Positions 17,099 to 37,948 of a stretch of 64,000 nucleotides of DNA are shown in pieces (within the stretch, counting starts at the first letter, position 1; every line of letters begins with the position of its first letter). The DNA comes from Alphaproteobacteria bacterium (GTDB lineage: Bacteria; Pseudomonadota; Alphaproteobacteria; JAJFIK01). Both the position numbers and the translations under genes were made by a program. Location: NCBI GenBank assembly GCA_021774965.1, contig JAJFIL010000306.1:10741-74740 (forward strand). The letters run 5' to 3'. A model generated the notes under the pieces. That model was not told the DNA's origin and made no database searches. It saw nothing but the letters and a program-made list of their open reading frames with translations.

Positions 17099-18049
17099 TC
17101 ATGCACGTTCCCGCCCATAGTAAAGCGTGACCACGTGCTGAGCTTCTGCAAAAAACAACCATCGCTCTGTGGCAATACCAATACCAGTGGATAACGCAGC
17201 TGGTATCAGCCACAGCAAGGGCGATACAGCATCCAGATTCAGTGCCGCAACCAAGGCGGTTCCAGGGACAATGAATCCCAGTGCGATCGCAATTCGCCGC
17301 AGTTTACTCGCATGTTTGCGCGCAATTTGAAAACCCATTTCCTCGAGCAAATAATTACTCTCAGTATGCGGACCTTCGATTAAACGAACAGTACCGTAGG
17401 AAGCAAGTCCCGTTGCCGTTCCTGATGTTGACCGCGACGGCTCTGATATTCGCGATCTCCAATAGGCTGCCTTTAGGGCCAAGCCAAGGCTAACGAAAAT
17501 CAATGCGTTCGCCAGCACTTTCTCGAGGCCCGGAAAACCCCAGGCCGCAAACAGAAGCGCCATTAAAACAGCGCCAGTGGCAAAGCTCAATACAAGATAG
17601 CCCTGCACCACCCAGCGATTATTCCATGCGGGAATTGACTTGAGCGAGGCATAAATCATTGCAGTGCAAAAAACTGTCACTGTGCTCATGAGGGCGCCAA
17701 TAAGGCCGATCCATCCAGCCAGTCCCTGATTTTCTCCGAAGAACACCCACGAAAGGGCGAAAAAGCCAGTTGGGATAAATGTCAGTATGGCGATTAAACC
17801 TTCCCGCGATAGCCAGGACGAGCGCCACTGGCTGAGCGCACGCCACGCGCGCTTGGGGTGGCCCAAATGCAATGTGGAGGAAAGAAGCCCGCTTCCCACC
17901 AGGAAAAAGGCCAGCCCGAAAGCAAGAAGCCCAAACATTTGATCCGCCGGCAAGAAATCCATCCAGGCAAATGCCGCAAGCCAAAACAATAGCCCGTATC
18001 CCGCACCAGTGGCGGTGGTAAAATATATGACGGACTTTGCTGGATGCAC
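17099..18049 (-). CDS. soeC: Membrane anchor subunit (DmsC/NrfD-PsrC-like) of a cytoplasm-facing molybdoenzyme; SoeC-like
   Basis: 316 aa and polytopic hydrophobic. It immediately follows the FeS subunit gene. Confidence 0.7.
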   Translation of the reverse strand: MHPAKSVIYFTTATGAGYGLLFWLAAFAWMDFLPADQMFGLLAFGLAFFLVGSGLLSSTLHLGHPKRAWRALSQWRSSWLSREGLIAILTFIPTGFFALSWVFFGENQGLAGWIGLIGALMSTVTVFCTAMIYASLKSIPAWNNRWVVQGYLVLSFATGAVLMALLFAAWGFPGLEKVLANALIFVSLGLALKAAYWRSRISEPSRSTSGTATGLASYGTVRLIEGPHTESNYLLEEMGFQIARKHASKLRRIAIALGFIVPGTALVAALNLDAVSPLLWLIPAALSTGIGIATERWLFFAEAQHVVTLYYGRERA

Positions 18050-18063
18050 CGTTTGGACCTTTC

Positions 18064-18819
18064 TTATTCTGACAAGATGCGATCAACCCAACGCGCCAAA
18101 AGGCCTGCGCCGTTCGGTTGATCATCTTTGTGTTGCAACATACGTGGTGATGCCGCGGCCATTTCAGGCCCGCGTGCACGTGGTGGAAGATATCGGTTCA
18201 CCGGCTTGGTGCCTTGCTCTGGCATAAGTGCATACCCCTCACGGGCGGCCACCAGTTTTGAGACATCCGAGTTTGGGTCGCCCAGATCGCCAAAGTGCCG
18301 CGCACCGGGGGGGCAGGTGGAGACGCAAGCAGGAACGCGAGATTCTTCCGGCAGCTCCTTGTTATAGATGCGATCAACACAGAGCGTACACTTCTTCATA
18401 ACGCCTTCGTCTTCGTCAAACTCGCGCGCTCCATACGGGCAAGCCCAGGAGCAAAGTTTGCAGCCGATACAGGTTTCGGCATTGACGAGAACAATGCCAT
18501 CTTCTTCACGTTTGTAGGAAGCGCCTGTCGGACAAACGGTCACGCACGGTGCATCCTCGCAGTGAAGACAAGATTTTGGAAAATGAACTGTACGGCTTGT
18601 CCCGGTTTCAGCACTGACTGCCTCGAACGTATGAATGCGATTGAACCACACACCTTTGGGCTTTGCCCCATAAGGATCAAGGTCGGTAAGGGGTGCGCTG
18701 TGACCGCTGGTGTTCCACTCCTTGCAATTGACCGCACAGGCGTGACAGCCCACGCAAATATCCAGATCAATAACGAGACCAAGTTTCTTGGTTGTTGGGC
18801 TTGTAGGCAGTTGGGTCAT
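18064..18819 (-). CDS. soeB: 4Fe-4S dicluster subunit (DmsB family); SoeB-like
   Basis: 251 aa. Motifs CVGCHACAVNC and CIGCKLCSWACP plus further Cys groups. The start overlaps the soeA stop (ATGA). Confidence 0.8.
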   Translation of the reverse strand: MTQLPTSPTTKKLGLVIDLDICVGCHACAVNCKEWNTSGHSAPLTDLDPYGAKPKGVWFNRIHTFEAVSAETGTSRTVHFPKSCLHCEDAPCVTVCPTGASYKREEDGIVLVNAETCIGCKLCSWACPYGAREFDEDEGVMKKCTLCVDRIYNKELPEESRVPACVSTCPPGARHFGDLGDPNSDVSKLVAAREGYALMPEQGTKPVNRYLPPRARGPEMAAASPRMLQHKDDQPNGAGLLARWVDRILSE

Positions 18820-21800
18820 TTGGAAGAACTACCCTTATTGCCTGTTTTGGTGCTGCCCTTTCTACTGCCTCTGGCGCTTACCCTGGAGCTGTCTTTGCCG
18901 GTCGTCTGATTGCCTCGGCCATCCGCAACCCCGGGCACAGTTTTGGAAATCACATGGCGATGAGCGATCCAGTCCTTTGCGGGAACCATGCCGCCGGTCG
19001 CCTCGGCGGTAAGATCCTTGCCATACCGTAAGGCATCTACCTGAGCTGGAGCATTTGGAATTTTCTGAATGGCTTCAAGAGCAGGCTCGGTTTCACCCGC
19101 TTCATGGGGCAGGCATTTTTCAACACGAACGCGAAGGTCAAACCACGCCGCCTGGCCTGTGACCGGATCAGAGTTTGAAAAGCGCGCACCATCTTTGCGA
19201 GGGGGCAGCAATTCATCGATCAGGTGATTGAGCAGGAACCCGCGTTTGCTTTCCGGGGCATCTTTAGTAAGCCCCCACGTGCCTTTGCGTTTCCCAATGG
19301 CATTCCATGTCCAAACCGTATTGGGGTTTACACCCTCAACAAGGCGCACCTGAGCTTTCACCCGCCCGATGCGGCTTTCAATCCAGACCCAATCATCGTC
19401 CGCAATACCTTGGGCCGTTGCGGTGCCCGTATGCATATGAAGCCGGTTGGCTGCCGTGATCTGGCGAAGCCAGGCGTTCTGCGATCCCCACGAATGATAC
19501 ATGTGCATAGGGCGCTGGGTCAGCGCATGAAGCGGAAATTCATCTACGCCTTCAGCCTTATCCTCAAAAGGGGCATACCAAATCGGTAAAGGGTCGAAAT
19601 AGGTATCCACGCGTGTCTTGTAACGCTCCGGAGGCTGATGATCTCCGTGGCCCTGGGCTGCGAGGCGAAATTTCTGCAAGGTCTCGGAATAAAGCTGAAA
19701 CACAATTGGCTTGGCCTCTGCCATCCAGCCCATCTTGGTGGCATATTCTAAATAAGCTTGGTTTGCGTGTTTGAAATATTGTTGATCGTCCGGCAGCGTA
19801 TAAGACCAGAACGCACCGTTTTCGATATAGTGATCAAGCTGATTGGGGTTGGGACTTCCGCGGCCTTGTTCGGTCCCGTCTGCCCCGCGCCATCCGGCAA
19901 GAGGCCCCAAGCCCGGCGCGCGTTCATGATGGGTGATGTAATCTGAATAGCCGCCGGGGTAGGTGGGGGAGCCATCCTCATTCGCAAGACCGGGCAAACC
20001 CAGTCGCGCGCCAAGATCAATCAACACATCCTGAAAAGGCCGCACGTCACGATCTGGTTTTACAACGGGATGACGGATCGCATCAGCGGGGCCATGGGCG
20101 CTTGAGATTGGCCGATCAAGAAGCGAGATACAGTCCCAGCGCTCAAGGTAAGTTGTGTCTGGTAGGACAAGATCAGCATAGGCCACCATTTCCGAATGGA
20201 ACGCATCGGAATAGATAATCTTTGGGATTTTGTATTCGCCGTCTTCGTTCTTGTCTGTCAGGTATTTAATCGTGCCAGAAATGTTCATGGAAGAATTCCA
20301 GGCCATATTGGCCATGTACATGAACAAGACATCAACAGTCTGCGGATCTCCTGCCCAGGCGTTTTGCAACACCATGTGCATCAATCCGTGGGCGGATAAT
20401 GGATATTCCCATGAATAGGCTTTGTCGATGCGAAGCGGCTCACCTACCTCATCAACGATCAGGTCTTCGGGTCCTTCTGGTGTGCCCAGCGGCATGCCGG
20501 CAAGGGGTTTGCCGGGCTCACAAACTTTGCCCGCAGGCTTTGGCCCGGATGGAATAGGTTTGGGGAAGGGAGACTTGTTCCGCCACCCCCCCGGCACATC
20601 GACCGACCCCAGCAGGGCTTGAAGAATATGAAGCGCACGGCAGGTATGAAAACCGTTTGAGTGGGCAGAGATACCGCGCATGGCATGAAATGAAACCGGT
20701 CGCCCGATCATTTTCTCATGCTTCCGCCCCCAGGCATCGGTCCATGGGGTATCTATTACAATCTCATGCTCAAAGGCAGCTTCTGCAATTTCCGCGGCAA
20801 TGCGCCGAATGGTATCGGCAGAGATACCGGTCTGATCTGCCACGCGATCCGGCGCATATTCATCCGCCATATAACGGCGGGCCAAAAGCTCAAAGGAAGG
20901 CACTGCCTTGCGGCCATCGGGAAGGGTGCGTGTTCCAGCGAAGGCGGGCTTGAGCTCTGCTTCATTGGCGCTTGTTAGTGCGCCCTTGGAAAGATCAAAG
21001 CATAAAGGGTTGCCATCTTCATCGCGCGCAAACAGGCCATCATCCGCTGCGCCTTCATCCTGGATCACCAACCAAGGCGCGTTGGAATATCGCGCGAGGG
21101 AGGCAAAATCGACCTTCTCGGCTTTAAGGAGCTCATGGATCAGGGAGAAGATGAAGAGACCGTCTGTGCCGGGACGAATACCAACCCACTCGTCTGCGAC
21201 GGCGGAATATCCAGTGCGACAGGGATTGACCGAAACGAACTTAGTGTCGTTCCGTGTTTTCAGGCGGCCGATGCCGGCCTTGATAGGGTTTGAGTCATGA
21301 TCCTCGGCGACACCAAACATCATGAAATAGCGCGTCAGATCCCAGTCAGGATCGCCAAACTCCCAGAAGGCGCTGCCAAGTGTATAGAGACCTCCAGCGG
21401 CCATGTTGACGGAACAAAACCCACCATGGGCCGCGAAGTTTCGCGTGCCGTATTGCTTGGCCCACCAACCGGTCATGGATTGGCTTTGGTCTCGCCCTGT
21501 AAAGAAAGCAAGGCGGGCGGGGTCTTTCGCGCGGGTCTCGCCAAGCCACTTGGTGGCGAGATCCAACGCTTCATCCCATTCGATTTCCTTGAATTCGCCC
21601 TTCCCGCGGTCGCCGACCCGCAGAAGCGGTTTCTGGAGGCGAGCGGGGGAATACTGGTTCATGATCCCGGCTGAGCCCTTGGCGCACAGAACGCCCTTGT
21701 TGATCGGGTGATCGGGATTGCCTTCGATGTAGCGGACGCGCCCATTCTTCAGGTGTACCTTGATGCCGCAGCGGCAGGCACACATGTAGCAAGTCGTCGT

Positions 21801-21887
21801 TTTGATCTCGTCCGAGGTCTTCGAGGAAAGCTCAACATCTTCCCTGACCGTCGCGAACGGGTTTAGCGACACGCGCCTCTCCTCCAC
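18816..21887 (-). CDS. soeA: Molybdopterin (bis-MGD) oxidoreductase catalytic subunit without signal peptide; SoeA-like sulfite dehydrogenase (quinone)
   Basis: 1023 aa. N-terminal FeS motif CYMCACRCG ... LCAKG. No twin-arginine leader, so it faces the cytoplasm. The three-gene A-B-C layout matches SoeABC. Confidence 0.78.
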   Translation of the reverse strand: MEERRVSLNPFATVREDVELSSKTSDEIKTTTCYMCACRCGIKVHLKNGRVRYIEGNPDHPINKGVLCAKGSAGIMNQYSPARLQKPLLRVGDRGKGEFKEIEWDEALDLATKWLGETRAKDPARLAFFTGRDQSQSMTGWWAKQYGTRNFAAHGGFCSVNMAAGGLYTLGSAFWEFGDPDWDLTRYFMMFGVAEDHDSNPIKAGIGRLKTRNDTKFVSVNPCRTGYSAVADEWVGIRPGTDGLFIFSLIHELLKAEKVDFASLARYSNAPWLVIQDEGAADDGLFARDEDGNPLCFDLSKGALTSANEAELKPAFAGTRTLPDGRKAVPSFELLARRYMADEYAPDRVADQTGISADTIRRIAAEIAEAAFEHEIVIDTPWTDAWGRKHEKMIGRPVSFHAMRGISAHSNGFHTCRALHILQALLGSVDVPGGWRNKSPFPKPIPSGPKPAGKVCEPGKPLAGMPLGTPEGPEDLIVDEVGEPLRIDKAYSWEYPLSAHGLMHMVLQNAWAGDPQTVDVLFMYMANMAWNSSMNISGTIKYLTDKNEDGEYKIPKIIYSDAFHSEMVAYADLVLPDTTYLERWDCISLLDRPISSAHGPADAIRHPVVKPDRDVRPFQDVLIDLGARLGLPGLANEDGSPTYPGGYSDYITHHERAPGLGPLAGWRGADGTEQGRGSPNPNQLDHYIENGAFWSYTLPDDQQYFKHANQAYLEYATKMGWMAEAKPIVFQLYSETLQKFRLAAQGHGDHQPPERYKTRVDTYFDPLPIWYAPFEDKAEGVDEFPLHALTQRPMHMYHSWGSQNAWLRQITAANRLHMHTGTATAQGIADDDWVWIESRIGRVKAQVRLVEGVNPNTVWTWNAIGKRKGTWGLTKDAPESKRGFLLNHLIDELLPPRKDGARFSNSDPVTGQAAWFDLRVRVEKCLPHEAGETEPALEAIQKIPNAPAQVDALRYGKDLTAEATGGMVPAKDWIAHRHVISKTVPGVADGRGNQTTGKDSSRVSARGSRKGSTKTGNKGSSSK

Positions 21888-22043
21888 CCCGCAGCCTCAA
21901 CGTCTGGCGCTTGAACAAAGCGCCGCTTTTCTTGATCAGCGATTATTATCGTAAATCGCAGTATTCGAATTTTCTAATATGAAAGTGCCAAGAATCTGCA
22001 AGAAATTCAATAGAAAAGCGTCTTAACCAAGACTATATCGCAA

Positions 22044-22108: not shown

Positions 22109-23383
22109 TTATTGACCCAGAGTATGGGTCCAGCCAATGGTCACAGCGAACTGGGTCATATCAAGTTCAACCCGGCGACCCGTAGCACCAACTGGCGTCA
22201 TTTCAGGGCCAGACACGGTAGATTCCGGTGCAAACATGACCGCAAAATCAAGCGCGTTGCTGTCACTTGCCTGGTAGGTAAATCCGCCAGTAAAGTGCTG
22301 TTCCATGACACCAGGTGCAAGCACGTTCAGGGTCACGTCTTCAGATCCAATAGGGTTTTCGTTATAGCCAACGCCAAGACGAAGAACCAATTGGTCAGTT
22401 GCGTCATATTCTGCGCCGACCTTGAATGCGTCAACGTCATCCCAACCAAAGCCAGGGCCACCGGACGAACCGAATAGCGTGGTCTTGGTTGTTGAGTTTC
22501 CAACTGCAGCAACCTCACTGTAGTTGATGTGACGATAGTCAGCGACCAGCGTCAGACCATCCATCGGCTCAACCGCAATACCAACCTGGTAGTTCGACGG
22601 GATATCAAAAGAGCCCCGCCCTTCGAACAAGCCAGAATAATCGCTCATCTCACTCATGGAGATAGATGACTGGTAGCTGCCGCCAAGGCTGAAGTGTTGG
22701 CCCAATTCAAGGTCTGCACCAACGCGGACACCAAAACCCGAAGAGGTATCGACACCATTGTCGGTCATATTTGATGGACTAACCGAAGCGCCGGCGAATG
22801 CACCCAGGCCTCTTGCTTCAAACATCTGATAAGCAAAGATCGGTGCAATGCCGACGGAAAAATTGTCGGTCAGTCGGCGAGCATAGCCCACCGTGATGAA
22901 CAGCTGGCTCAGATCAACGCCAGCTCCGCCGCCGCAGAAAATGCCGCTTCCACCACCGCATTCAGGAAAGGAGCGGGAAACGTTGCCGTAATCCGTGTTC
23001 ATGCCGCCATTGCCGTAAGCTGCAATGGAAACTGCAGAGCGGCTATCGATTTGACGAACAAGACCGACATTGGGAATTACAAAGTAATCCGAATCGCTTT
23101 CGGTCTCGCCGACAGGTAAAAACCCACCGCCAGGACTGACGGTAAAGCCACGACGAGGGCTAAACACAGTAGCGCCCAGTGAGAACTGATCTCCGCCGCT
23201 AGTGATACCCGCCGGATTAATCGAAAGAGCCATAGCGTCGGTTGCGTCGGCAACCCCGGCTCCAGCCATTGCAGACTGGCGCGCACCATAGCCGTGCGCA
23301 AAGTACCCTTCTGTTGCGGACGCTGTTGAAACCATCAACAGAGTTGCCGCCGCAGCGAGTGTGAAAGTTAAACCTTTTGCCAT
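22109..23383 (-). CDS. Outer-membrane channel of the FadL/OmpP1/TodX family (hydrophobic-compound transport)
   Basis: Signal peptide MAKGLTFTLAAAATLLMVSTASA followed by TEGYFAHGYGARQSAMAGAG. Aromatic C-terminus of a beta-barrel. AGGAGG RBS lies before the ATG at 23383. Confidence 0.8.
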   Translation of the reverse strand: MAKGLTFTLAAAATLLMVSTASATEGYFAHGYGARQSAMAGAGVADATDAMALSINPAGITSGGDQFSLGATVFSPRRGFTVSPGGGFLPVGETESDSDYFVIPNVGLVRQIDSRSAVSIAAYGNGGMNTDYGNVSRSFPECGGGSGIFCGGGAGVDLSQLFITVGYARRLTDNFSVGIAPIFAYQMFEARGLGAFAGASVSPSNMTDNGVDTSSGFGVRVGADLELGQHFSLGGSYQSSISMSEMSDYSGLFEGRGSFDIPSNYQVGIAVEPMDGLTLVADYRHINYSEVAAVGNSTTKTTLFGSSGGPGFGWDDVDAFKVGAEYDATDQLVLRLGVGYNENPIGSEDVTLNVLAPGVMEQHFTGGFTYQASDSNALDFAVMFAPESTVSGPEMTPVGATGRRVELDMTQFAVTIGWTHTLGQ

Positions 23384-23487
23384 TGTCCCCTCCTGGCGTA
23401 AGTACATTCAGTCCCAAGTCCTGCAATCCACCCCATACTCCCCCAATGGGAACGGATGCAGACTTCAAAACACTTTATGCTGCCTGA

Positions 23488-23715
23488 TTAGGCAGCGCGT
23501 CTGAGCACGAAACGGTAGGTTCCACCGCCTTCATCGTGCTCTACGAGTTCGTTCCCCGTTGTCCGGCAGAACGCCTCGAAATCTTTAACCGAACCCGGGT
23601 CTGTAGATAGAATCTCCAGGGTACTACCGGGTTCCATGGCGCCAAGCGCCTTCTTTGCCTTCAGAATGGGCAAGGGGCAATTCAGCCCCTTCGTGTCCAA
23701 AGTTTGGTCAGCCAT
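23488..23715 (-). CDS. tusA: TusA-family sulfur carrier
   Basis: 75 aa. LDTKGLNCPLPILKAKKAL contains the conserved CPxP persulfide-carrying Cys. Confidence 0.88.
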   Translation of the reverse strand: MADQTLDTKGLNCPLPILKAKKALGAMEPGSTLEILSTDPGSVKDFEAFCRTTGNELVEHDEGGGTYRFVLRRAA

Positions 23716-23751: not shown

Positions 23752-24267
23752 TTAGATATATAGATTAATGTCAGCTTTGAGCGCATTTTCCATATATGTT
23801 GCAGCGCCGCCAACATCGATGTCCTCAATCATGTCGTCTGTTGAGTATTCAAACAGGTCCAGGGTCATCTGACAGGCGATCATGCGCACATCTGACAGCT
23901 GAGCTGCCTCACGAAGCTCTTCGATAGAGGCCACACCCTTCTTTTTAATCATGTTTTTCATCATGCCGGTGGTAAATGCGGTCACGCCGGGGATCATGCC
24001 GACCATGTTAGGCATGGCCATGTGCATTCCTGCCATCGGCATTTTCATCGCAGCGTTGCCAAGAGGTGACACCTGCATGTCAAGATCTTTCTTAAGAAGC
24101 GTAAGACCGTAAAAAGTAAAGAACATCGTCACGTCTACGTCCATGGCCGCTGCGGTGGTCGCAAGGATGAACGGGGGGTAGGCCCAATCAAGGGTTCCCT
24201 TGGTGACGATAATGGACATGGACTTGGCGTTATCCAGGGAGCCCGCCGGGGCTGTTGCGTCTGACAT
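23752..24267 (-). CDS. DsrE/DsrF-like sulfur-relay protein, DsrE2 (DrsE_2) type
   Basis: 171 aa. Contains IIVTKGTLDWAYPPFILATTAAAMDVDVTMFFTFYGL, a Met-rich loop and the conserved Cys in RMIACQMT. It sits directly upstream of tusA. Confidence 0.8.
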   Translation of the reverse strand: MSDATAPAGSLDNAKSMSIIVTKGTLDWAYPPFILATTAAAMDVDVTMFFTFYGLTLLKKDLDMQVSPLGNAAMKMPMAGMHMAMPNMVGMIPGVTAFTTGMMKNMIKKKGVASIEELREAAQLSDVRMIACQMTLDLFEYSTDDMIEDIDVGGAATYMENALKADINLYI

Positions 24268-24445
24268 ATTCCTACCTCTTCACGTATCTAGCTTTGTTGT
24301 TCACTCGATCACTGATTTCTTGTCGAACTTTCGATCCAGTACCATTCTATTAGCAAATTCGAATATTATGCAATATTAGGTGTCTGAATGCCCTGTCGTC
24401 TACAGAAAAATTACGAACTTGACTAAGCCCACTCTCTCCAAAGCC

Positions 24446-26757: not shown

Positions 26758-26784
26758 TCTCTCAAAAGTCATTAGGAAATAGAC

Positions 26785-29917: not shown

Positions 29918-29941
29918 ATGTGTAGGAAGGCGGTTGCTTAA

Positions 29942-29957: not shown

Positions 29958-30067
29958 AAACTACCCTGAGCGGGCGCAAATATCGCCTAATGCTCTGTAT
30001 TTTGGGCATTTTTTGAAATAATCAACGGCGCAAAAATGCGCTACTATTGACCGGGAGGTTGGGACAA

Positions 30068-30448
30068 ATGTCCAACAGCAAACTTGTAATTATTATGGCG
30101 AATACCAATCCATCTCACCGCGAAGAACTCGGGGCCCCTATTTTTCAGGCCACCGTCGCTGCTGCCATGGAATATGAAGTCGATGTGATCTGCACCGCCG
30201 CCTCTGGCATTCTGATGAAAGTAGGCGAAGCAGAAAAGCTGACCATCAAGGAAGGCTCCCCCAAGACCGTTTATGATTTTATCAAAGATGCTCATGAAGC
30301 GGGTGTGAAGTTTTACAGCTGCTCCCCCAATCTTGAACTTTTCGACATGGAACCTGGTGATTTGATCCCAGAGTGCGAAGGCCTTGTGGGTGGTGCGCAC
30401 CTGATCGAAATGGTCATGGAAGACGACTGCGAAGTTCTGACCTACTAA
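30068..30448 (+). CDS. DsrE-family sulfur-relay protein, DsrE3-type
   Basis: 126 aa from the ATG with a GGGAGG RBS. Begins MSNSKLVIIMANTN and has the conserved Cys in KFYSCSPN. First gene of the shdr operon. Confidence 0.8.
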   Translation: MSNSKLVIIMANTNPSHREELGAPIFQATVAAAMEYEVDVICTAASGILMKVGEAEKLTIKEGSPKTVYDFIKDAHEAGVKFYSCSPNLELFDMEPGDLIPECEGLVGGAHLIEMVMEDDCEVLTY

Positions 30449-30472: not shown

Positions 30473-31222
30473 ATGTCACACGCGACAACATCACGTAAGC
30501 AGGAACACATCGGCGATCCGGTATCGGACAAACCGCCGGTTTCCCGGGACAAGCTTGAGGAAATCTTCCAGGATATCCAGGCGGACCTGCGCTATGACTT
30601 CGAGCTCAATGGATGTTTGAACTGCGGCATCTGCACGGCAACGTGCCCCTCCGCTCACTATTACGATTACTCCCCTCGCGAGATTGTTCAACTTCTGTGG
30701 ACGGAGAATCTGGAAGGCATCTATGATGCCATGCAGGAAAAGATCTGGTCCTGCGCTCAGTGCTACACTTGCGCCGCGCGCTGCCCGTTTGGGAATTCCC
30801 CGGGCGGGCTGGTGATGTTGATGCGCGAAGTGGCCATCAAGCACGGGATGGAATCAGCCAAGAACGTGCTGCGTCCGTTCTCCCGCGTGATGCTGAAGCT
30901 GATCTCGACCGGCAACCAACTCTCCCCCGATATGATCAACCCGGATCACTTTGCCGACTGGGGCCCGAATATCTCGAAGATCGATGCGCCTCTTGCTGTC
31001 TTAAGACGCGCCATTCCCATGCCGACCCTGAACACGATCAAGACCGCCTGGGAAGTGAACCTGAAAACATCCGTGGAGCTTTACACCATCTGGGAAGCCA
31101 GCGGTGTTCTCGATCAGCTGGAGACGATCGATGAAGATCTCTTCGACGTCATTACCGACATCATGGATGAGAAACGTGAAGACTGGGACGATTTCCTGGA
31201 AGAGCAGGAAGACGAGGACTAA
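30473..31222 (+). CDS. hdrC1: sHdrC1, heterodisulfide-reductase-like FeS subunit C
   Basis: Two ferredoxin-type motifs, CLNCGICTATCP and CAQCYTCAARCP, and an acidic C-terminal tail. Confidence 0.85.
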   Translation: MSHATTSRKQEHIGDPVSDKPPVSRDKLEEIFQDIQADLRYDFELNGCLNCGICTATCPSAHYYDYSPREIVQLLWTENLEGIYDAMQEKIWSCAQCYTCAARCPFGNSPGGLVMLMREVAIKHGMESAKNVLRPFSRVMLKLISTGNQLSPDMINPDHFADWGPNISKIDAPLAVLRRAIPMPTLNTIKTAWEVNLKTSVELYTIWEASGVLDQLETIDEDLFDVITDIMDEKREDWDDFLEEQEDED

Positions 31223-31280
31223 GCCTCGACTAACCTGCCGTATCGGAAATTGAACTCACGAGTTGAGGAAGGAAGAGAAA

Positions 31281-32639
31281 ATGGACAACACCAAAGAACC
31301 CGGCGAACGCTTTACAGGCCATGGCTCCGAGTGGCGAGATTCCAATCTCAGTACGGAAGATGCCACCCGCGCTACAGCCTGGGTTGAGCAAAAGATCAAC
31401 AAACGCTCCATGCTCACCAACAAGGATCGCGTCCATGATGTTCGCGATATCATGTGGGACCTGGAAAAAGACGGCGAGATCGTCGTTCATCGGGTCAAGG
31501 ACGAGCATGAGCCCGTCATGGCCAAGACCCTTTATGGCTGGGACAAGAAAATCCCAACCAATCAGCTGTGGCATCACAAATCCTGCGGCCAGTGCGGCAA
31601 TATCCCGGGCTATCCGGCGTCTCTTCTGTGGCTGATGAACGAGCAAGGCACGCGCTATCTCGACGAGACGGATCAGACCTCGTGCACAGCGTGGAACTAT
31701 CACGGCTCAGGCATTGGCAACATCGTCAGCCTTGCCGCTGTCTTCCTGCGCAATTTCCACCAAGCTTATGTTTCAGCAAAAGCCGAAGGTCTCGACGAAG
31801 GCTATTACTATCCGCTGGTTCACTGCGGCACGTCTTTTGGCAACTACAAGGAAGTGCGCGAGTACCTGATGCATTCCGCCGAATTGCGCGAGCAGGTCAA
31901 AGTCATCTTGGGCAAGCTGGATCGTCTTGTGGACGGCAAGCTGCTGATCCCCGAAGAGATCGTGCATTATTCTGAGTGGACGCACGTCATGCGCCACAAG
32001 ATCGCGGAACGTCAGACAATCGACGCCTCAAACATCCGTGCCACCGTTCACTCTGCCTGTCACGTCTACAAGATGGTGCCGCAGGATGTGATCTATGATG
32101 ATGACGTGCTGGACGGCGAGCGGGTTGCTGTCTCCACCGGCATCATGGAAGCGCTTGGTGCTCAGGCCATCGACTATTCCACCTGGTATGATTGCTGCGG
32201 CTTTGGTTTCCGCCACATTATTTCCGAGCGGGAATTCACGCGCTCCTATGCCATTGATCGCAAGATCAAGGTCATGGTGGAAGAAGCCAACTCAGACGTT
32301 CTGATCGGTCACGATACAGGCTGCATTACCACGTTTGACAAGAACCAGTGGATCGGCAACGCCAAGGGCGAAAGCTACGATCTGCCGGTTCTCGCCGATG
32401 TACAGTTCGCAGCATTGGTGTGCGGCGCGCATCCATACAAGATTGTGCAGTCTCATTGGCATGCGTCATCGACAGAAAAACTGTTTGAAAAGCTCGGCAT
32501 AGATTGGCGGGCAAAGAAGGCAGAGTTTGAAGACTATCTGAAACAAATCGAGGCCGGTGGTGCGCAGGAGAATCTCTATGATCCTCGTCGCATGATCACT
32601 GGTGGCCCCGGATATCAAAAGATTGAACAGGTAAAATGA
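31281..32639 (+). CDS. hdrB1: sHdrB1, CCG-domain subunit
   Basis: About 452 aa from the ATG with a GAGGAAGGAAG RBS. CCG motif WYDCCGFGFRH. Confidence 0.85.
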   Translation: MDNTKEPGERFTGHGSEWRDSNLSTEDATRATAWVEQKINKRSMLTNKDRVHDVRDIMWDLEKDGEIVVHRVKDEHEPVMAKTLYGWDKKIPTNQLWHHKSCGQCGNIPGYPASLLWLMNEQGTRYLDETDQTSCTAWNYHGSGIGNIVSLAAVFLRNFHQAYVSAKAEGLDEGYYYPLVHCGTSFGNYKEVREYLMHSAELREQVKVILGKLDRLVDGKLLIPEEIVHYSEWTHVMRHKIAERQTIDASNIRATVHSACHVYKMVPQDVIYDDDVLDGERVAVSTGIMEALGAQAIDYSTWYDCCGFGFRHIISEREFTRSYAIDRKIKVMVEEANSDVLIGHDTGCITTFDKNQWIGNAKGESYDLPVLADVQFAALVCGAHPYKIVQSHWHASSTEKLFEKLGIDWRAKKAEFEDYLKQIEAGGAQENLYDPRRMITGGPGYQKIEQVK

Positions 32640-33685
32640 CGAAAACCGTTCTTGTTGTAGGGGGCGGGCCAGCCGGGCTGTCCACCGCTCACGCTCTGGC
32701 TCAGGCCGGTCAACATGTGACCCTCGTGGAAAAGGAAGATCGCCTCGGCGGTGCACCTATCCTTGATGGCTATGCCAAACTTGTTCCTTCCGGGGAATGG
32801 GCGAAGGATGCCATCGGCGGCATGGTGGATCGGGTGACCGACAATCCGAATGTCGATGTGCGACTGAACACCAAGGTGGACAAGTTCGACGGCGAGATCG
32901 GTAACTTCACCGCGGCCTTGTCCGACGGCCAGCAAGTCGAAGCGGCCTCAACGGTTCTCACCACCGGCTTTACTCACTTCGATAGCATCAACAAGCCCGA
33001 GTGGGGCTTTGGCATGTACCCCGACGTGGTCACCACCACGCAAGTAGAACAGATGATTTCTTCGGGCAACGGCGTGCGTCGTCCTTCCAATGGCGAAAAG
33101 CCAAAGCGCGTTGCCATCCTGTTGTGCGTGGGCTCCCGCGACCGGCAGATCGGCCGTGAGTGGTGCTCCAAGATCTGTTGCACCGTTTCTGCAAATCTGG
33201 CCATGGAAATTCGCGAAGAGCTGCCCGACTGCCACGTCTATGTCTATTACATGGACATCCGCACCTTCGGATTGTTGGAGACCAAATACTACTGGCGCTC
33301 TCAGGAAGAGTTCAAAGTTAAATACATCAAGGCACGGATCGCTGAGGTCACGTCAGACGGCGACAAGGTCATCGTCAAAGGCGAAGACACGCTTGTTAAA
33401 CGCCCCATCACCATTCCTTTTGACATGGTGGTGCATGCAATTGGTATGGACCCTAATGTGGACAACATGCTGATCTCCACGATCTTTGACGTGAAGCTGG
33501 AGCCAAACGGTTTTCTTGACCGGGAAAATTCCTATGCCGGCATGGGTGCAACAAACCGCCCCGGCGTTTTCGTTGCAGGCTCTGCCACTGGCCCTGAAAC
33601 CATTGACGACAGCATCGCCCAAGGTCAGGCGGCAGCTATCTCGGCACTGAACGTGGCGCGCGGCACAGCATCGGCAGCGGAGTAA
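32636..33685 (+). CDS. hdrA: sHdrA, short FAD/[4Fe-4S] flavoprotein
   Basis: 349 aa. Dinucleotide fold VLVVGGGPAGLS and cluster ligands CVGSRD ... WCSKICC. ATGA overlap with hdrB1. Confidence 0.9.
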   Translation: MTKTVLVVGGGPAGLSTAHALAQAGQHVTLVEKEDRLGGAPILDGYAKLVPSGEWAKDAIGGMVDRVTDNPNVDVRLNTKVDKFDGEIGNFTAALSDGQQVEAASTVLTTGFTHFDSINKPEWGFGMYPDVVTTTQVEQMISSGNGVRRPSNGEKPKRVAILLCVGSRDRQIGREWCSKICCTVSANLAMEIREELPDCHVYVYYMDIRTFGLLETKYYWRSQEEFKVKYIKARIAEVTSDGDKVIVKGEDTLVKRPITIPFDMVVHAIGMDPNVDNMLISTIFDVKLEPNGFLDRENSYAGMGATNRPGVFVAGSATGPETIDDSIAQGQAAAISALNVARGTASAAE

Positions 33686-33694
33686 CCAGCACCC

Positions 33695-34567
33695 ATGGCC
33701 TCGTTCTTCTCCAATCGCAACGCTCGGAGCACTGCCAAGACCCATGAGGTCCTGGAGCGCCCAACCCTCGACTTGAGCGGGCCGGCATTGAGCTATGCGT
33801 TGGAGCAATTAGGCGCGGGATGTGAAGCGGAAGGCGGCATCGACCGTTTTGTCATGGCGCTGAAACTGCGCGGTGATGCGTTCAAGGATATATTGCTGGA
33901 CAAGCCCATGGCAGACGTCACGGCGGAAGAGTTCGCTTCTTTGACGACCTTCATGCCAACGGTGCGCCGACGTATTGGACCCTATCTGGAACCACTTTTG
34001 TTTCCAAAACTCCAAAGTACCTTGGCGACGCTTCTTGAGGGCACCCACGAGCCCACCAAAGTAGACGCGCGTATAGAGGCGTTCTGTACGTCTTATCCAG
34101 CTGACAAGGCCCACCGCTGGGTCAGAGATCTGGCGGCAGAGGTTCTTCATGCGACAGATTCTGATCGCATCCCGCTTATGTGTCGCTGGGTCTGGAACGA
34201 GAAATCCAACACCGGCGTTTTGCGCGAGATTTGGCATGGAGATGTGGATGGCGAGACCATTCGCATCGCGGATAATTACGCGACCTTTGTGATGCTGCGC
34301 GAGGAGCTGTCCCAGTTTCTGACTTCCAAAGGCGTATTTCAGGAAGTGGCCTGCTATATCGATCTAATGTGCGCGCAGGTTTATGCCGAATACATTTCTG
34401 CGCAAGGCGGCAGCTATTTGCGGGCAGATTTTTCGGCGGCAGATGACCCCATGGCCCATGTGCGCCGCCTGTTGGGGCTTGATGGTGTGAAGGCCAAACT
34501 GAACGTAGACAACAATGACAGACAAAATGGTGCGAGTGAAATCACTGCGCTTGTTGAGGGGAGATAG
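33695..34567 (+). CDS. Conserved hypothetical protein embedded in the shdr operon (hyp)
   Basis: 290-aa clean ORF in the canonical position between shdrA and shdrC2. No recognisable cofactor motif. Confidence 0.7.
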   Translation: MASFFSNRNARSTAKTHEVLERPTLDLSGPALSYALEQLGAGCEAEGGIDRFVMALKLRGDAFKDILLDKPMADVTAEEFASLTTFMPTVRRRIGPYLEPLLFPKLQSTLATLLEGTHEPTKVDARIEAFCTSYPADKAHRWVRDLAAEVLHATDSDRIPLMCRWVWNEKSNTGVLREIWHGDVDGETIRIADNYATFVMLREELSQFLTSKGVFQEVACYIDLMCAQVYAEYISAQGGSYLRADFSAADDPMAHVRRLLGLDGVKAKLNVDNNDRQNGASEITALVEGR

Positions 34568-34573
34568 GGCTTA

Positions 34574-35359
34574 ATGCCTATCCATGAAAAAAGCCTGATC
34601 CGGCCAGAGGACCTTACGACCCACGATGATTTGGTCATCGATGGCATTGATGTGTCTGGCGACTGGAGCACCTTCATTAATACCCGCGTTGTGGCGGACT
34701 ACAATGAAGAGATGCAGGATGAAATCGCGGCCCTGCCCGGCGGGGAATACATTCATCGCTGCTGGCAATGTGGGTCTTGCACCAACGCATGCACCATCAA
34801 TGAGCTTAATCCTGATTTTAATCCACGGTACTGGATCTATTTGATCCGCATGGGATATGAATCCGAACTTCTGCGCGACAAGGACCTGATCTGGCAATGC
34901 GTGTCGTGCAATAAATGCACGTCTGCCTGTCCGCGCGATGTGGTGCCGGAAGGCGTCATGAAGGCGACTGCGCACTGGCTGGAGTTGAAAGGCCATACGG
35001 CGAAAACGCCGTCCACAGAGTTTGACGAAGAGTTCAGCCATCAGGTCTTCAAGACCGGCAAGATTGAAGATGGAGAGGTCTTCCTGGGCTTTTTCAAACG
35101 CACAGGCCAGAGCCCTTTTCAGGACTGGATTTTCCAGATGGGCAAGCAGTTGGCGTTCAAGTTTCCCATCACCATGTTGATCAAGATGGGCTGGGCAACC
35201 CTGTTCCACCCTCGCACCCGGAATTGGGGCCCGGCGCGCGATGCCATCAACGAATATATCGAAGAACAGGAAGCAGAGATCAGATTGACGCTCAAACTTG
35301 ATGAGCCCAAGCCTGCTGCCGACAAAGATCCCGCACCTACACAACAAGCGGCTGAATAG
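34574..35359 (+). CDS. hdrC2: sHdrC2
   Basis: Motifs CWQCGSCTNAC and CVSCNKCTSACP. Confidence 0.85.
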   Translation: MPIHEKSLIRPEDLTTHDDLVIDGIDVSGDWSTFINTRVVADYNEEMQDEIAALPGGEYIHRCWQCGSCTNACTINELNPDFNPRYWIYLIRMGYESELLRDKDLIWQCVSCNKCTSACPRDVVPEGVMKATAHWLELKGHTAKTPSTEFDEEFSHQVFKTGKIEDGEVFLGFFKRTGQSPFQDWIFQMGKQLAFKFPITMLIKMGWATLFHPRTRNWGPARDAINEYIEEQEAEIRLTLKLDEPKPAADKDPAPTQQAAE

Positions 35360-35370
35360 GACGAGTACAG

Positions 35371-36300
35371 ATGAGCGAAAAGAAATACAAAAGTGTTGCC
35401 TACTACCCCGGCTGTGCGCTGGAGGGAACGGGCCATGCCTATAACCGCTCTACCAAGGCCCTTGGCAAAACCCTTGGACTGAAACTTGACGAGGTCAAGA
35501 ATTGGAACTGTTGCGGGGCCATGGAAGTCAAGAACACGGACCCCAAGCTTCAGACCTATTTGTCGTCACGGGTGATGTCGATTGCTGCCAATGAGATGAA
35601 ACATGATGTGGTGATGGCGCCCTGCAATGGTTGTTATCATAATCTCAAAAAGGCGGAATACGATCTCACCAATGATGAGGACTCGCGCGCCGTCACCGCG
35701 CGTCTTTCAGAGAAAGCAGGCCATGAGACCTATAAGGCCGGGCAGATTGAAACCATCCACGCGCTGGATTGGATCAAGGATGCCATCGGTGAAGATGGTC
35801 TTCGCGAACGGGTGCGGAACTCCCTCAATGGTCTGAAGGTCGCGAACTACTACGGCTGCATGTACACGCGCCCTCGCCACATCTTCCCCGAAAAGGATCA
35901 GGGGGAGGGAAGTGAGTCGACCTCCAAGCCTCACTTCATGGATGATCTGCTGGAAGCTGCTGGCGCTGACAATGTGGACTTCGCCTTGAAGACAGCATGC
36001 TGTGGCGGTGCTCATACGCTTTCTGACTCAGATACGTCGACGAAACTGGTGCTGAATATTATTGAAGCGGCGGAAGAGTCCGGGGCCGAGGTGATTGCCA
36101 CCGAATGTCCGACCTGCCACACGGGACTTGAGATGCACCAGATTCGGGCCGAGAAGGTTCTGGGCCGAAAGACAAATGTGAAAATCGTCTATTTCACTCA
36201 ATTGCTGGGTCTGGCCATGGGGCTTTCCCCGCGCAAGGTGGGCCTGCAGGAAAATATCTCCAACTCCCATTCTCTGTTTAAAGCCAAGGGCATCGCATGA
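35371..36300 (+). CDS. hdrB2: sHdrB2, double CCG-domain subunit (probable catalytic noncubane FeS site)
   Basis: 309 aa. Motifs WNCCGAME, TACCGGAH and CPTCH. Confidence 0.88.
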   Translation: MSEKKYKSVAYYPGCALEGTGHAYNRSTKALGKTLGLKLDEVKNWNCCGAMEVKNTDPKLQTYLSSRVMSIAANEMKHDVVMAPCNGCYHNLKKAEYDLTNDEDSRAVTARLSEKAGHETYKAGQIETIHALDWIKDAIGEDGLRERVRNSLNGLKVANYYGCMYTRPRHIFPEKDQGEGSESTSKPHFMDDLLEAAGADNVDFALKTACCGGAHTLSDSDTSTKLVLNIIEAAEESGAEVIATECPTCHTGLEMHQIRAEKVLGRKTNVKIVYFTQLLGLAMGLSPRKVGLQENISNSHSLFKAKGIA

Positions 36301-36725
36301 AGACGCTCCAGGCCATTGAAGCTCAGATCGAAAGCTGGGAGCCAGACGTTGAAAACGCCGAGACCCAGGCGGCCGAGCTGTTGACGCTTGCCGAGACGAT
36401 ATTGGAAAACTGGCTTGTGGCCCATGAGCGCAACCCAAAGGACGAAGTGCGCGAGGGGTTTTACCTCCTGTCGCTGCACCGTCAGTCGGCCAAGGGCGAT
36501 CCCAGTTTCAATGCCTGCCGGGAGACCTGCCGGGAGTTGGCTTTTCGCTTCAATCTCATTAAAACGGATTCGGAAGCTGCGGAGACCGAGCAGCGCCTTG
36601 TGATGATGCGGCGACTTGCCCACCATCTGGTGTTGTTTGTTTCTGGTAAGCTGCAAGTCGCAGAGCTTGGCGAGTTTTGCTGTGCTTCGCGCCCGTTGCG
36701 ACAAACTGCGGAAACTCCGCGCTAA
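36297..36725 (+). CDS. Unassigned 142-aa protein between shdrB2 and lbpA
   Basis: ATGA overlap with the hdrB2 stop. Predicted helical. Cysteines occur in NACRETCRE (CX3C) and FCCAS. I do not recognise the family. Confidence 0.55.
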   Translation: MKTLQAIEAQIESWEPDVENAETQAAELLTLAETILENWLVAHERNPKDEVREGFYLLSLHRQSAKGDPSFNACRETCRELAFRFNLIKTDSEAAETEQRLVMMRRLAHHLVLFVSGKLQVAELGEFCCASRPLRQTAETPR

Positions 36726-36742
36726 TATAGGTGACCAAAACC

Positions 36743-37183
36743 ATGACTGATGTACGCGGATGCCACCTCGAAGATAGTCTTCTCTATGACGTGGAAAACC
36801 ACATCTGGTTCAAGGAGCTGGATGATGGAAAGGTGAAACTGGGCATGACCACAATCGCCACGGCCATGGCCGGTGAGATTGTAGCCTTTACCCCTAAAAA
36901 AGTTGGTCGTTCGGTTAAGGAGGGCAAATCCTGCGGCACCGTCGAATCAGGCAAATGGGTGGGACCAGCCAAATCTGCTGCTGCTGGTGAGGTTATCGAG
37001 GTCAATGAGGCGCTTGTGGCCAAGCCAAACATGGCTAATGAAGATCCGTATGATACGGGCTGGATGGTGATTTTGGCCCCGGAAAACTGGGATGCAGTCA
37101 AAGGCACGTTAACCCCAGGAACAGAAGTTGGCCCCAAATATGAGGCCAAAATGGAAGCTGACGGTTTCGAAGGTTGCGGATAG
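36743..37183 (+). CDS. lbpA: LbpA, GcvH-like lipoate-binding protein of the sHdr system
   Basis: GcvH fold length. The lipoyl-Lys context CGTVESGKWVGP fits the ESxKW type found in LbpA rather than glycine-cleavage H. AGGTGA RBS lies before the ATG at 36743. Confidence 0.85.
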   Translation: MTDVRGCHLEDSLLYDVENHIWFKELDDGKVKLGMTTIATAMAGEIVAFTPKKVGRSVKEGKSCGTVESGKWVGPAKSAAAGEVIEVNEALVAKPNMANEDPYDTGWMVILAPENWDAVKGTLTPGTEVGPKYEAKMEADGFEGCG

Positions 37184-37261: not shown

Positions 37262-37633
37262 ATGGATCAGTTGTCAGAAATGAGTATGGAAAGTATGGCG
37301 GAAAATGCCGGTCAGGCATCGACCCTTCTTCGCTCCATGGCAAATCAGACGCGACTGATGATTCTCTGCCAGTTGGTGGATGGTGAAAAATCAGTTCGGC
37401 AATTGCATGAGACGATCCCGCTTAGCCAATCCGCTCTCTCTCAGCACTTGGCGATTTTGCGCCGGGAACGTCTGGTCTCAACCTCGCGCGTTGCCCAGTC
37501 TGTTTTCTATTCCCTCGCCAGCACAGATGTGGAAGCGGTGCTCTCGACGCTCTATGGGATTTATTGCGTAGCTCCGAATTTAGAGCCCGATGGGGAAGCA
37601 AAAGACGCCCCGACAGATACGCCTTCTGAATAA
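37262..37633 (+). CDS. ArsR/SmtB-family regulator with a conserved Cys pair (sHdrR/SoxR-like)
   Basis: 123 aa. Motifs RLMILCQLVDGEKSV, QSALSQHLAILRRERLV (wHTH) and LYGIYCV. Confidence 0.85.
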   Translation: MDQLSEMSMESMAENAGQASTLLRSMANQTRLMILCQLVDGEKSVRQLHETIPLSQSALSQHLAILRRERLVSTSRVAQSVFYSLASTDVEAVLSTLYGIYCVAPNLEPDGEAKDAPTDTPSE

Positions 37634-37651
37634 TTCTGAAGGCTCTTGCGC

Positions 37652-37948
37652 TTATCGGCAGCAGTAGATCCCGTGCAGAACTTCAATAACCCGCTGGGCT
37701 TCATCGCCTTTGAGTGAATAATAGATCGTCTGTCCGTCGCGGCGCGTTTTCACCAGCCCATCTTTCCTCAAGATCGCCAATTGCTGTGAAGCATTGGTCT
37801 GACTGACGTTCAGAAGCTGACGCAAGGCGCTGACGCTTTTTTCTCCATCCACAAGCTGACACAGCAACATAAGGCGCTTTTCATTGGCCAGCGCCCCCAT
37901 CAGATCAGCCGCGTCCTTGGCTGAATTTTTGAGATTTGTTACATTCAT
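37652..37948 (-). CDS. Second ArsR/SmtB-family regulator, paralogue of the first
   Basis: 98 aa from MNVTNLK. Motifs RLMLLCQLVDGEKSV, QTNASQQLAILRKDGLV and LHGIYCC. It is convergent with the first regulator and divergent from the RND operon. Confidence 0.85.
   Translation of the reverse strand: MNVTNLKNSAKDAADLMGALANEKRLMLLCQLVDGEKSVSALRQLLNVSQTNASQQLAILRKDGLVKTRRDGQTIYYSLKGDEAQRVIEVLHGIYCCR

Follow-up and report, generated by a model that had tools for sequence, protein, structure and literature searches.

A contiguous block of about 21 kb (positions 17099-37948) in a 64-kb window of the alphaproteobacterial contig JAJFIL010000306.1 most probably represents a single regulon whose products oxidise protein-bound sulfane sulfur to sulfate in the cytoplasm, a reading to which we assign a probability of roughly 0.85. 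This block, referred to below as the island, is the Hdr plus Soe part of the published 'Sox-Hdr-Soe' pathway (PMC6397845). The pathway itself is already known; what is new here is an operator-like palindrome shared by the promoters of the island, the recurrence of the island with soeABC attached, and a distinct HDAC subfamily closely linked to the lip genes. All coordinates are positions in the window, i.e. the whole 64-kb stretch of DNA that was analysed, and L-numbers denote related loci that were compared with it.

Pfam and NCBIfam scans recovered in its place every gene that a first-pass annotation of this DNA had listed for the block, with the families and hallmark residues present (Table 1). 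The block begins at the stop codon of soeC (17099) and ends at an internal ATG start of a second ArsR gene (37948). The genes soeC, soeB, soeA, fadL/todX, tusA, dsrE2 and the second ArsR gene are on the minus strand, and the HDAC-family gene, lipS1, lipS2, slpl(AB), lipX, dsrE3C, shdrC1B1AHC2B2, a 142-aa hypothetical gene, lbpA and the first ArsR gene are on the plus strand; the FadL/TodX, HDAC-family and 142-aa genes had not been named in the first-pass annotation. The genes themselves, their hallmark residues, the signals of orientation, the conservation of synteny and the operator-like sites were observed directly in the DNA. An Rfam scan of the window gave no match, so no molybdenum cofactor (Moco) riboswitch precedes soeA, and promoter and terminator consensus scans of the window returned only the background level.

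In the scheme that we propose, the chemistry, the pairing of regulator and operator, and the route of sulfur entry are drawn from characterised homologs. Sulfane sulfur in the cytoplasm would be passed as a persulfide between TusA, DsrE2 and DsrE3C and delivered to sHdrAA'B1C1B2C2, which would oxidise it to sulfite together with lipoylated LbpA. For the maturation of LbpA, sLpl(AB) would ligate free octanoate or lipoate, and LipS1/LipS2 would insert the two sulfurs. A membrane-bound, cytoplasm-facing SoeABC would then convert sulfite to sulfate while reducing quinone; since sulfite would thereby be removed in the cytoplasm, this toxic intermediate would not need to be excreted, unlike in Hyphomicrobium denitrificans. 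A two-cysteine ArsR protein of the sHdrR type probably recognises an 18 bp palindrome located before all four units of the island, namely soeABC, dsrE2-tusA-fadL, the HDAC-family gene plus the lip genes (with an extra operator upstream of lipS1) and dsrE3C-shdr-lbpA, and would be released from the DNA once sulfane sulfur bridges its cysteines.

The palindrome, ATTMG-N6-CTAATA, was derived from inspection of the intergenic regions. It matched nine times in the window against 0.62 matches expected, a count reached by none of 100 shuffles. Eight of the nine matches are four sites read on both strands, all in promoter regions of the island, and the ninth lies inside soeC with one mismatch. An initial search with a 10-mer motif, allowing one mismatch, was not significant; only the extended palindrome was. 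When the distance is measured to the soeA start at 21872, palindrome 1 lies 90-107 bp upstream, and equivalents were found upstream of soeA in L146 (Hyphobacterium lacteum) and L147 (GCA_054033475.1). Neither the promoter of the neighbouring Calvin-cycle (cbb) operon nor the intergenic region between the second ArsR gene and an adjacent RND pump contains a palindrome. Across 67 related loci (1.2 Mb) we counted 61 palindromes, 58 of them located 25-151 bp upstream of dsrE3, lipS1, dsrE2/HDAC or soeA; one of the three others precedes a gene for a cytoplasmic-type DUF442 (Rhd442-family) protein (L065, 16851-17264). Gammaproteobacterial loci were devoid of it. Because, in electrophoretic mobility shift assays, the sHdrR protein of H. 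denitrificans binds DNA from the regions preceding lipS1 and dsrE3C (PMC12423496) and the palindrome stands at lipS1 and dsrE3, it is most simply read as the putative operator of the sHdrR ortholog, with soeABC included in the regulon. Its presence at all four units, and its retention at the same promoters in alphaproteobacterial relatives, predicts one sHdrR-type regulon, and the predicted 18 bp operator could be used to find further members.

The first-pass annotation had counted two Cys-bearing ArsR regulators in the island. Both are present with two Cys residues each, but the second probably belongs to a different module. The two Cys of the first regulator (ArsR1) are conserved in 34 of 34 orthologs, and their spacing equals that of Cys50 and Cys116 in H. 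denitrificans sHdrR (PMC12423496). The gene for the second regulator (ArsR2) is divergent from an RND membrane-fusion/AcrB efflux pair (38030-42276), and related shdr loci carry no separate ortholog of it. RND pumps have been reported as targets of sulfane-sulfur-responsive ArsR regulators (PMC12423496), and ArsR2 is probably part of the neighbouring pump module, separate from the island.

Judged by its gene order and residues, the island is a type I sHdr-LbpA system with the sulfur transferases TusA, DsrE2 and DsrE3C. Type I sHdr systems are defined by shdrC1-B1-A-H-C2-B2 in one syntenic cluster (PMC11094781), and precisely this order was found at 30473-36300, with shdrH at the same position in 60 of 65 related loci. 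The Fe/S site of sHdrB1 is modified, with a single CC plus CGQC, and sHdrB2 has two CC signatures and two CX2C. Among the sulfur carriers, the CPLP motif of TusA is present in 34 of 36 orthologs; the conserved Cys of DsrE3 (residue 92 of the open reading frame, ORF) aligns with the corresponding site of structure 3MC3, and most DsrE3 orthologs carry a CC pair like that of H. denitrificans DsrE3C (PMC11094781). The hallmarks of LbpA are a GcvH fold, a lipoyl-lysine and two Cys, one N-terminal and one C-terminal, that are absent from GcvH (PMC6067878). In the LbpA orthologs examined, Lys75, the N-terminal Cys and the C-terminal GC(G) were conserved in 50/50, 50/50 and 49/50 sequences, respectively, and the island protein scored below the NCBIfam GcvH cut-offs.

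LbpA maturation had been ascribed to two radical SAM proteins, a ligase and a glutamine amidotransferase (GATase)-like protein. All four were found, but the last of these, LipX, apparently lacks its nucleophile. LipX displays the motif G-L-G-A-Q, which we take to be the counterpart of the class I GATase site G-x-C-x-G-x-Q, with Gly at the nucleophile position in 53 of 56 orthologs; on this alignment LipX is apparently without the nucleophile Cys and probably not a glutaminase. Both LipS1 and LipS2 contain the CX3CX2C radical SAM motif, and lipS1, lipS2 and a ligase with LplA-type and LplB-type regions are encoded together, as expected for the sLpl(AB)-LipS1/S2 pathway. Reading frames overlap by 4 bp at both the lipS2/slpl(AB) and the slpl(AB)/lipX junction, and the same overlaps occur in H. 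denitrificans (PMC10332631). In the related locus L041, as in some Robiginitomaculum loci, an AbgT-family transporter gene (6964-8577) is inserted between lipX and dsrE3; it may be of the type described as 'lipY putative fatty acid transporter' (PMC10332631).

The three-subunit molybdoenzyme is, on its features and on the family cut-offs, of the cytoplasm-facing SoeABC type, in keeping with the signal-peptide-less enzyme described in the first-pass annotation. The SoeA Cys158 aligned with the position of Cys173 in PsrA (2VPW), which is presumably a Mo ligand. The N-terminal cluster motif of SoeA reads C-x2-C-x3-C-x27-C, and neither SoeA nor SoeB has a twin-arginine translocation (Tat) signal or a hydrophobic region before the Cys cluster. 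The SoeABC architecture comprises a molybdenum-bis(pyranopterin guanine dinucleotide) (Mo-bisPGD) and [4Fe-4S] subunit A, a subunit B with 4x[4Fe-4S] and an NrfD-like subunit C with eight transmembrane (TM) helices (PMC8076601), all of which were found in the three subunits of the island. Counting Lys plus Arg residues of SoeC by hand on the hydropathy profile gave 21 in the N-terminus, loops 2-3, 4-5 and 6-7 and the C-terminus versus 1 in the other loops, which predicts an N-in/C-in orientation that is inverted relative to PsrC. In PsrC both termini are on the P-side, and the inverted orientation is the one expected of SoeC (PMC8076601). JGI annotates a SoeA homolog with 71% identity as 'sulfite dehydrogenase (quinone) subunit SoeA'. 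The public gene call for soeA is 1018 aa, and the longest ORF extends to 21887. As a separate observation, the C-terminal stretch of about 60 aa (18816-18990) is a low-complexity tail rich in Lys, Ser, Gly and Thr; it is not covered by close homologs, which are about 996-998 aa long.

Conservation was assessed with an sHdrB1-centred scan that yielded 65 loci with 76-89% sHdrB1 identity, on which tblastn was run with all island proteins. These loci belong to Robiginitomaculum, Hyphobacterium, Parvularculaceae, Hellea, Sphingomonadaceae, Methyloligellaceae, Woeseiaceae and other Gammaproteobacteria, and the order of the block is the same across them. The block as such was found in Alpha-, Beta- and Gammaproteobacteria, and the island itself belongs to a group of marine Alphaproteobacteria, with best matches in Robiginitomaculum, Hyphobacterium and Parvularculaceae; we found no report in the literature linking Robiginitomaculum to the sHdr pathway. 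Attachment of soeABC to the block was seen in Hyphobacterium lacteum (L146), GCA_054033475.1 (L147), a Sphingomonadaceae metagenome-assembled genome (MAG; L025) and a Rhizobiaceae MAG (L173), the nearest relative being GCA_054033475.1 with a SoeA that is 83% identical. Protein identities of about 80% between the alpha- and gammaproteobacterial copies suggest that the block has been exchanged horizontally as a unit.

Table 1. Features of the sulfur-oxidation island and its immediate borders (positions in the 64-kb window).
Feature	Position	Strand	Evidence or remarks
DUF2147 small secreted protein	16584-17003	-	PF09917 E 2e-19; N-terminal hydrophobic signal-like segment
soeC, NrfD/DmsC-type membrane anchor	17099-18049	-	PF04976 DmsC E 5e-17; 8 TM segments (hydropathy)
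soeB, ferredoxin-like subunit	18064-18819	-	PF13247 E 5e-25; four [4Fe-4S] motifs, 16 Cys
soeA, Mo-bisPGD catalytic subunit	18816-21872	-	PF04879, PF00384, PF01568
Operator-like palindrome 1, ATTCGAATTTTCTAATA	21962-21979	.	75-92 bp upstream of the longest soeA ORF
FadL/TodX-family outer-membrane channel	22109-23407	-	PF03349 E 2e-27
tusA, sulfur carrier	23488-23715	-	PF01206 E 3e-25; CPLP active-site motif
dsrE2	23752-24267	-	NCBIfam NF047629 'sulfur carrier protein DsrE2', 217.6 bits vs cut-off 210
Operator-like palindrome 2	24348-24365	.	Divergent dsrE2/HDAC promoter region
HDAC/AcuC-family Zn amidohydrolase	24380-25570, start possibly ATG 24446	+	PF00850 E 4e-67; active site intact
Operator-like palindrome 3	25694-25711	.	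Just upstream of lipS1
lipS1, radical SAM lipoyl synthase subunit	25711-26757, likely ATG 25723	+	NCBIfam NF053742, 193.5 bits (cut-off 230)
lipS2, radical SAM lipoyl synthase subunit	26785-28083	+	NCBIfam NF053743, 187.6 bits (cut-off 270)
slpl(AB), lipoate/octanoate:protein ligase	28080-29183	+	PF21948 E 4e-44; LplA-type and LplB-type regions both matched
lipX, glutamine-amidotransferase-like	29180-29917	+	Weak NCBIfam GATase matches only
Operator-like palindrome 4, ATTAGACTTGTCTAATA	29941-29958	.	Upstream of dsrE3C-shdr
dsrE3C-type sulfur transferase	30068-30448	+	PF13686; best solved relative DsrE3A structure 3MC3
shdrC1	30473-31222	+	Two CX2CX2CX3C motifs; HdrC family matches
shdrB1	31263-32639, likely start 31281	+	CCG domain; HdrB matches all below cut-off
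shdrA	32636-33685	+	349 aa; 76% identity to H. denitrificans sHdrA (PDB 6TJR)
shdrH, conserved hypothetical	33695-34567	+	No family match (Pfam, NCBIfam)
shdrC2	34574-35359	+	Two CX2CX2CX3C motifs
shdrB2	35371-36300	+	Two CCG domains E 8e-24; full CX(n)CCX(n)CX2C motif
Conserved 142-aa hypothetical, between shdrB2 and lbpA	36297-36725	+	No Pfam/NCBIfam family match
lbpA, lipoate-binding protein	36731-37183	+	PF01597 E 2e-31; Lys75 in ESGKW, N-terminal Cys11, C-terminal GC(G), Cys149
sHdrR-type ArsR repressor (ArsR1)	37262-37633	+	PF01022; Cys36 and Cys102, 66 residues apart
Second two-Cys ArsR (ArsR2)	37652-37948	-	PF01022; Cys70 and Cys136 (ORF numbering), 66 residues apart

Other identities for the two central enzymes were weighed against these data. 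The Hdr-like genes might have encoded a methanogen-type or Flx-type heterodisulfide reductase with no part in sulfur oxidation, and their top NCBIfam matches do bear the names HdrA, HdrB and HdrC. These matches, however, fall far under the cut-offs, and the 349-aa sHdrA covers only the core of the 650-aa methanogen HdrA: it scored 592 bits over its full length against 6TJR and no more than 190 bits, over residues 100-343 only, against methanogen HdrA. The arrangement C1B1AHC2B2 together with lbpA, lip, tusA and dsrE genes is moreover the published definition of type I (PMC11094781). The full-length identity to sHdrA and the merely partial methanogen matches rule this identity out; it is refuted on both sequence and synteny, we leave it next to no probability, and the earlier placement of the subunits with sHdr is thus confirmed. 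For the molybdoenzyme, the alternative is either a cytoplasm-facing reductase of the Psr/Phs/Ttr kind or a general-purpose enzyme for detoxifying sulfite in organosulfonate catabolism, which happens to lie nearby. The best NCBIfam and PDB matches are indeed thiosulfate/polysulfide reductases, and among the matches listed close homologs are widespread in heterotrophic Alphaproteobacteria (e.g. Mesorhizobium, Azospirillum), at loci for which the protein comparison showed no shdr alongside. The SoeA pattern scan listed distant genomes in place of the closest ones and was left out when linkage was judged. Yet SoeA remained under the cut-off of every NCBIfam molybdoenzyme equivalog (PhsA, DmsA, TtrA, Nap, Nas, Fdh and ArrA), with PhsA best at 210 bits versus 694, and its best PDB match, 2VPW, is also partial in a database that holds no SoeABC structure. 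The first-pass annotation had taken the enzyme to be of the SoeABC type, and it falls short of the curated thresholds of all nitrate, DMSO, thiosulfate, tetrathionate, arsenate and formate families. The Psr/Phs/Ttr enzymes are exported by Tat, whereas SoeA has no such signal and the predicted SoeC topology is inverted. Against an enzyme not dedicated to the pathway, the site before soeA is the same operator-like one found at the shdr and lip promoters, also in L146 and L147; the soe-shdr linkage recurs in four further loci; and the 71%-identical homolog is annotated as SoeA. Either form of this alternative is therefore very improbable, and a SoeABC dedicated to sHdr is the reading that we retain.

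Two wider claims of the first-pass annotation fared less well. It had proposed that, with no sox genes in the window, sHdr plus Soe may be the main route. That sox, dsr, apr and sat are absent was confirmed for the scanned non-overlapping ORFs of at least 90 aa, i.e. all but two of that size in the window (49-513 and 6057-6404), but the proposal over-reached, as a 64-kb window is a small part of a genome and cannot show that sox is lacking genome-wide. A survey of 82 sulfur oxidisers found SoxXYZAB in most of them, common to all three core pathways, and soeABC in every genome carrying hdr (PMC6397845). Given that Hdr plus Soe, with Sox, is already a published core pathway, the lack of sox in the window is no argument for a Sox-independent route. 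The idea that the island alone is the main or complete route for external reduced sulfur gains something from the conserved FadL-type porin in the putative regulon, which could admit a hydrophobic sulfur substrate. It loses more from the dependence of H. denitrificans sHdr on periplasmic Sox and the SoxT importer (PMC12423496) and from the fact that the island encodes no cytoplasmic-membrane importer, and we consider it unlikely. The second claim was that the island begins 0.8 kb from cbbR and forms an energy-plus-carbon supercluster with the cbb operon, in which cbbR is followed divergently by cbbF-P-T-A-L-S and a HAD phosphatase gene. The distance was wrong: the cbbR stop (15472) is 1.6 kb from the island, two genes (FA_hydroxylase and DUF2147) lie between, and the figure of 0.8 kb applies to the FA_hydroxylase gene. 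A co-inherited, co-regulated chemolithoautotrophy supercluster would still be compatible with the short interval between the cbbR and soeC stops, with the similar GC content of both regions and with the presence of both gene sets somewhere in the genomes of relatives. The two intervening genes are, however, unrelated, the cbbF-cbbR promoter region contains no operator-like site, and the adjacency is not conserved in relatives. In GCA_054033475.1 the island (L147) and cbb (L150) are on different contigs, each with different neighbours (those on both sides of cbb being unrelated), and this same assembly contains the closest CbbR (84% identical) as well as the closest SoeA. In Hyphobacterium lacteum, genes for Moco biosynthesis come next after soeC-DUF2147, and in the Robiginitomaculum MAG chromosome OZ245059.1 the cbb genes (L151, at 2.49 Mb) and the shdr genes (L036, at 0.67 Mb) are about 1.8 Mb apart by their coordinates. 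The unconserved adjacency and the missing operator indicate that the cbb neighbourhood is a genome-specific juxtaposition and not a functional unit; a supercluster is very unlikely.

Regarding the cbb genes themselves, the window encodes a form I RuBisCO with large and small subunits (7464-9332). The cbb operon of OZ245059.1 (L151) has a 460-aa large subunit (3454-4836) without a small-subunit gene and looks like form II, and the cbb operon of GCA_054033475.1 lacks a transketolase gene.

Several observations weigh against the reading of the island as one regulon for sulfane sulfur oxidation. LipS1 and LipS2 are the best NCBIfam matches for their genes and yet score under the curated cut-offs. 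There is no lipT in the island, where the lipS1-lipS2 gap (26758-26784) is just 27 bp; lipT, encoding an FAD oxidoreductase, is frequent but not universal, occurring in about 53% of LipS1/S2-containing bacteria (PMC10332631). A gap of about 1.1 kb between lipS1 and lipS2 recurs in many relatives, and in L007, the locus in which the gene was identified, it is filled by a lipT-like FAD/geranylgeranyl-reductase-like gene (1792-2898). The Woeseiaceae loci retain the regulator and have no palindrome. The likeness of SoeABC to the Allochromatium, Aquifex and Ruegeria enzymes is one of features and not of direct sequence comparison. Four conserved genes, encoding the HDAC-family, FadL and DUF2147 proteins and the 142-aa ORF, are not accounted for by the pathway scheme, and no importer (SoxT/YeeE), Sox, SQR or PDO gene was found in the window.

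The HDAC-family gene, one of these four, is closely and widely linked to lipS1 and tusA-dsrE2 in shdr clusters. The best solved relative of its product is HDLP of Aquifex aeolicus (1C3R, E 7e-56), and the catalytic motifs GGTHHG, D-x-DAHHGDG and GGGGYN are invariant in 30 orthologs. Aquifex aeolicus is itself an sHdr-carrying sulfur oxidiser, and to our knowledge the natural substrate of its HDLP has never been established. In the sHdrB1-centred set the gene was present in 25 of 41 informative loci; it is directly upstream of lipS1 on the same strand in 21 of these 25 carriers, with gaps of -2 to 159 bp, and loci without the lipT gap carry it in 19 of 21 cases. In a scan centred on the HDAC protein, tusA/dsrE2 and/or lip genes adjoin the homolog in 26 of the 28 loci with the best scores and in none of the remaining 52, which scored lower. 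The homologs linked to tusA, lip or shdr span Alpha-, Beta- and Gammaproteobacteria and, by this neighbourhood pattern, are a distinct subfamily tightly tied to the lip operon. In three Robiginitomaculum loci without the gene (L021, L032 and L058), lipS2 and slpl(AB) are separated by about 1 kb; the gap in L021, the sole one of the three that was scanned, holds a gene of the CE4 'polysaccharide deacetylase' family (5884-6867, PF01522), which may be a non-homologous replacement for the HDAC-type amidohydrolase. Two Woeseiaceae loci seemed to encode a 715-aa HDAC-LipS1 fusion, but this was discarded, as a stop codon is present and lipS1 starts four codons later.

The substrates of sLpl(AB) are free octanoate or lipoate only. 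The amidohydrolase could act as an N-acyl-lysine deacylase that frees octanoate or lipoate from other acylated proteins, or as one that edits or recycles the LbpA lysine. The sHdr and lipoate papers in which the term was looked for (PMC11094781, PMC10332631, PMC6067878) mention no deacetylase, and we found no report in the literature linking sHdr to HDAC/AcuC. Taken with the linkage pattern, this makes a role in LbpA acylation a plausible hypothesis; that the protein is an unrecognised component of the lipoylation pathway is a tentative proposal, with the odds against it.

The reference for a type I sHdr-LbpA system is the H. denitrificans locus Hden_0682-0698 (Cao 2018; Tanabe 2023/2024; Li 2025). 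The island shares with it the order lipS1...lipS2-slpl(AB)-lipX-dsrE3C-shdrC1B1AHC2B2-hyp-lbpA with tusA nearby, and a two-Cys repressor of the sHdrR type with regulatory sites upstream of lipS1 and dsrE3C, these sites being predicted in the present case. Unlike that locus, the island has soeABC attached in the same putative regulon, whereas H. denitrificans is without an efficient sulfite oxidase and excretes sulfite (PMC12423496). The window further differs in lacking lipT, adjacent sox genes, a soxT importer and a cytoplasmic Rhd442, and it has additional genes for DsrE2, a FadL-type porin, an HDAC-family protein and a DUF2147 protein. The organism also carries a cbb operon with form I RuBisCO, whereas H. 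denitrificans has been described as an obligate chemoorganoheterotroph (PMC12423496). The combination of HdrCBAHypHdrCB and a cytoplasmic SoeABC in a Calvin-cycle autotroph resembles the 'Sox-Hdr-Soe' type (Watanabe et al. 2019, PMC6397845); that work described co-occurrence at the genome level, whereas in the island soeABC is contiguous with shdr and has the putative operator in common with it. With the SoeABC of Allochromatium vinosum and Aquifex aeolicus (Dahl 2013; Boughanemi 2020) the enzyme shares the make-up of a three-subunit complex iron-sulfur molybdoenzyme without Tat signal and with a predicted cytoplasmic active site; the A. vinosum enzyme serves the rDsr pathway, unlike the sHdr-linked one described here, and the Lys/Ser/Gly-rich tail of the island SoeA is about 20 aa longer than in close homologs. 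As in the sLpl(AB)-LipS1/LipS2 pathway (Tanabe 2023, PMC10332631), lipS1, lipS2, slpl(AB) and lipX form one operon near lbpA; the differences are the lack of lipT and the HDAC-family amidohydrolase immediately upstream, or, in some relatives, a CE4-type deacetylase within the lip operon.

The known chemistry is left unchanged by the island. With the sulfur carriers, the oxidising complex, cofactor maturation, sulfite removal and a regulator all within 21 kb, it is an unusually complete member of a known system and can serve as a clean reference, and its SoeABC-mediated oxidation of sulfite appears to be part of the sHdrR regulon. The HDAC-like, FadL-like and DUF2147 proteins and the 142-aa ORF are candidates for the missing steps, i.e. 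octanoate or lipoate supply and substrate entry.

In 20 of the 65 related loci a FadL-type gene was found in one of two places, beside tusA in Alphaproteobacteria and after the regulator in Woeseiaceae. The channel could take a hydrophobic sulfur substrate, or octanoate or lipoate, as cargo; we found no report in the literature that links FadL to sulfur oxidation. The gene for the 142-aa protein is present in 51 of the 65 loci. The DUF2147 gene lies just beyond the start of the block as first delimited and directly downstream of soeC, a position that it also occupies in L146 (14785-15201) and L147 (12324-12743), and homologs were found near the shdr cluster in L019 and L024.

Two further observations concern the far side of the cbb operon. 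A plus-strand gene at 4904-5500 encodes a DUF442 protein (Rhd442 family, PF04273) that carries a twin-arginine/lipoprotein-like signal as well as the motif HCQSSNR. Upstream of cbb, at 1054-4881 on the plus strand, three co-directional genes encode a beta-CASP metallo-beta-lactamase, a thymidine-phosphorylase-family protein and a ribose-phosphate-pyrophosphokinase-like protein.

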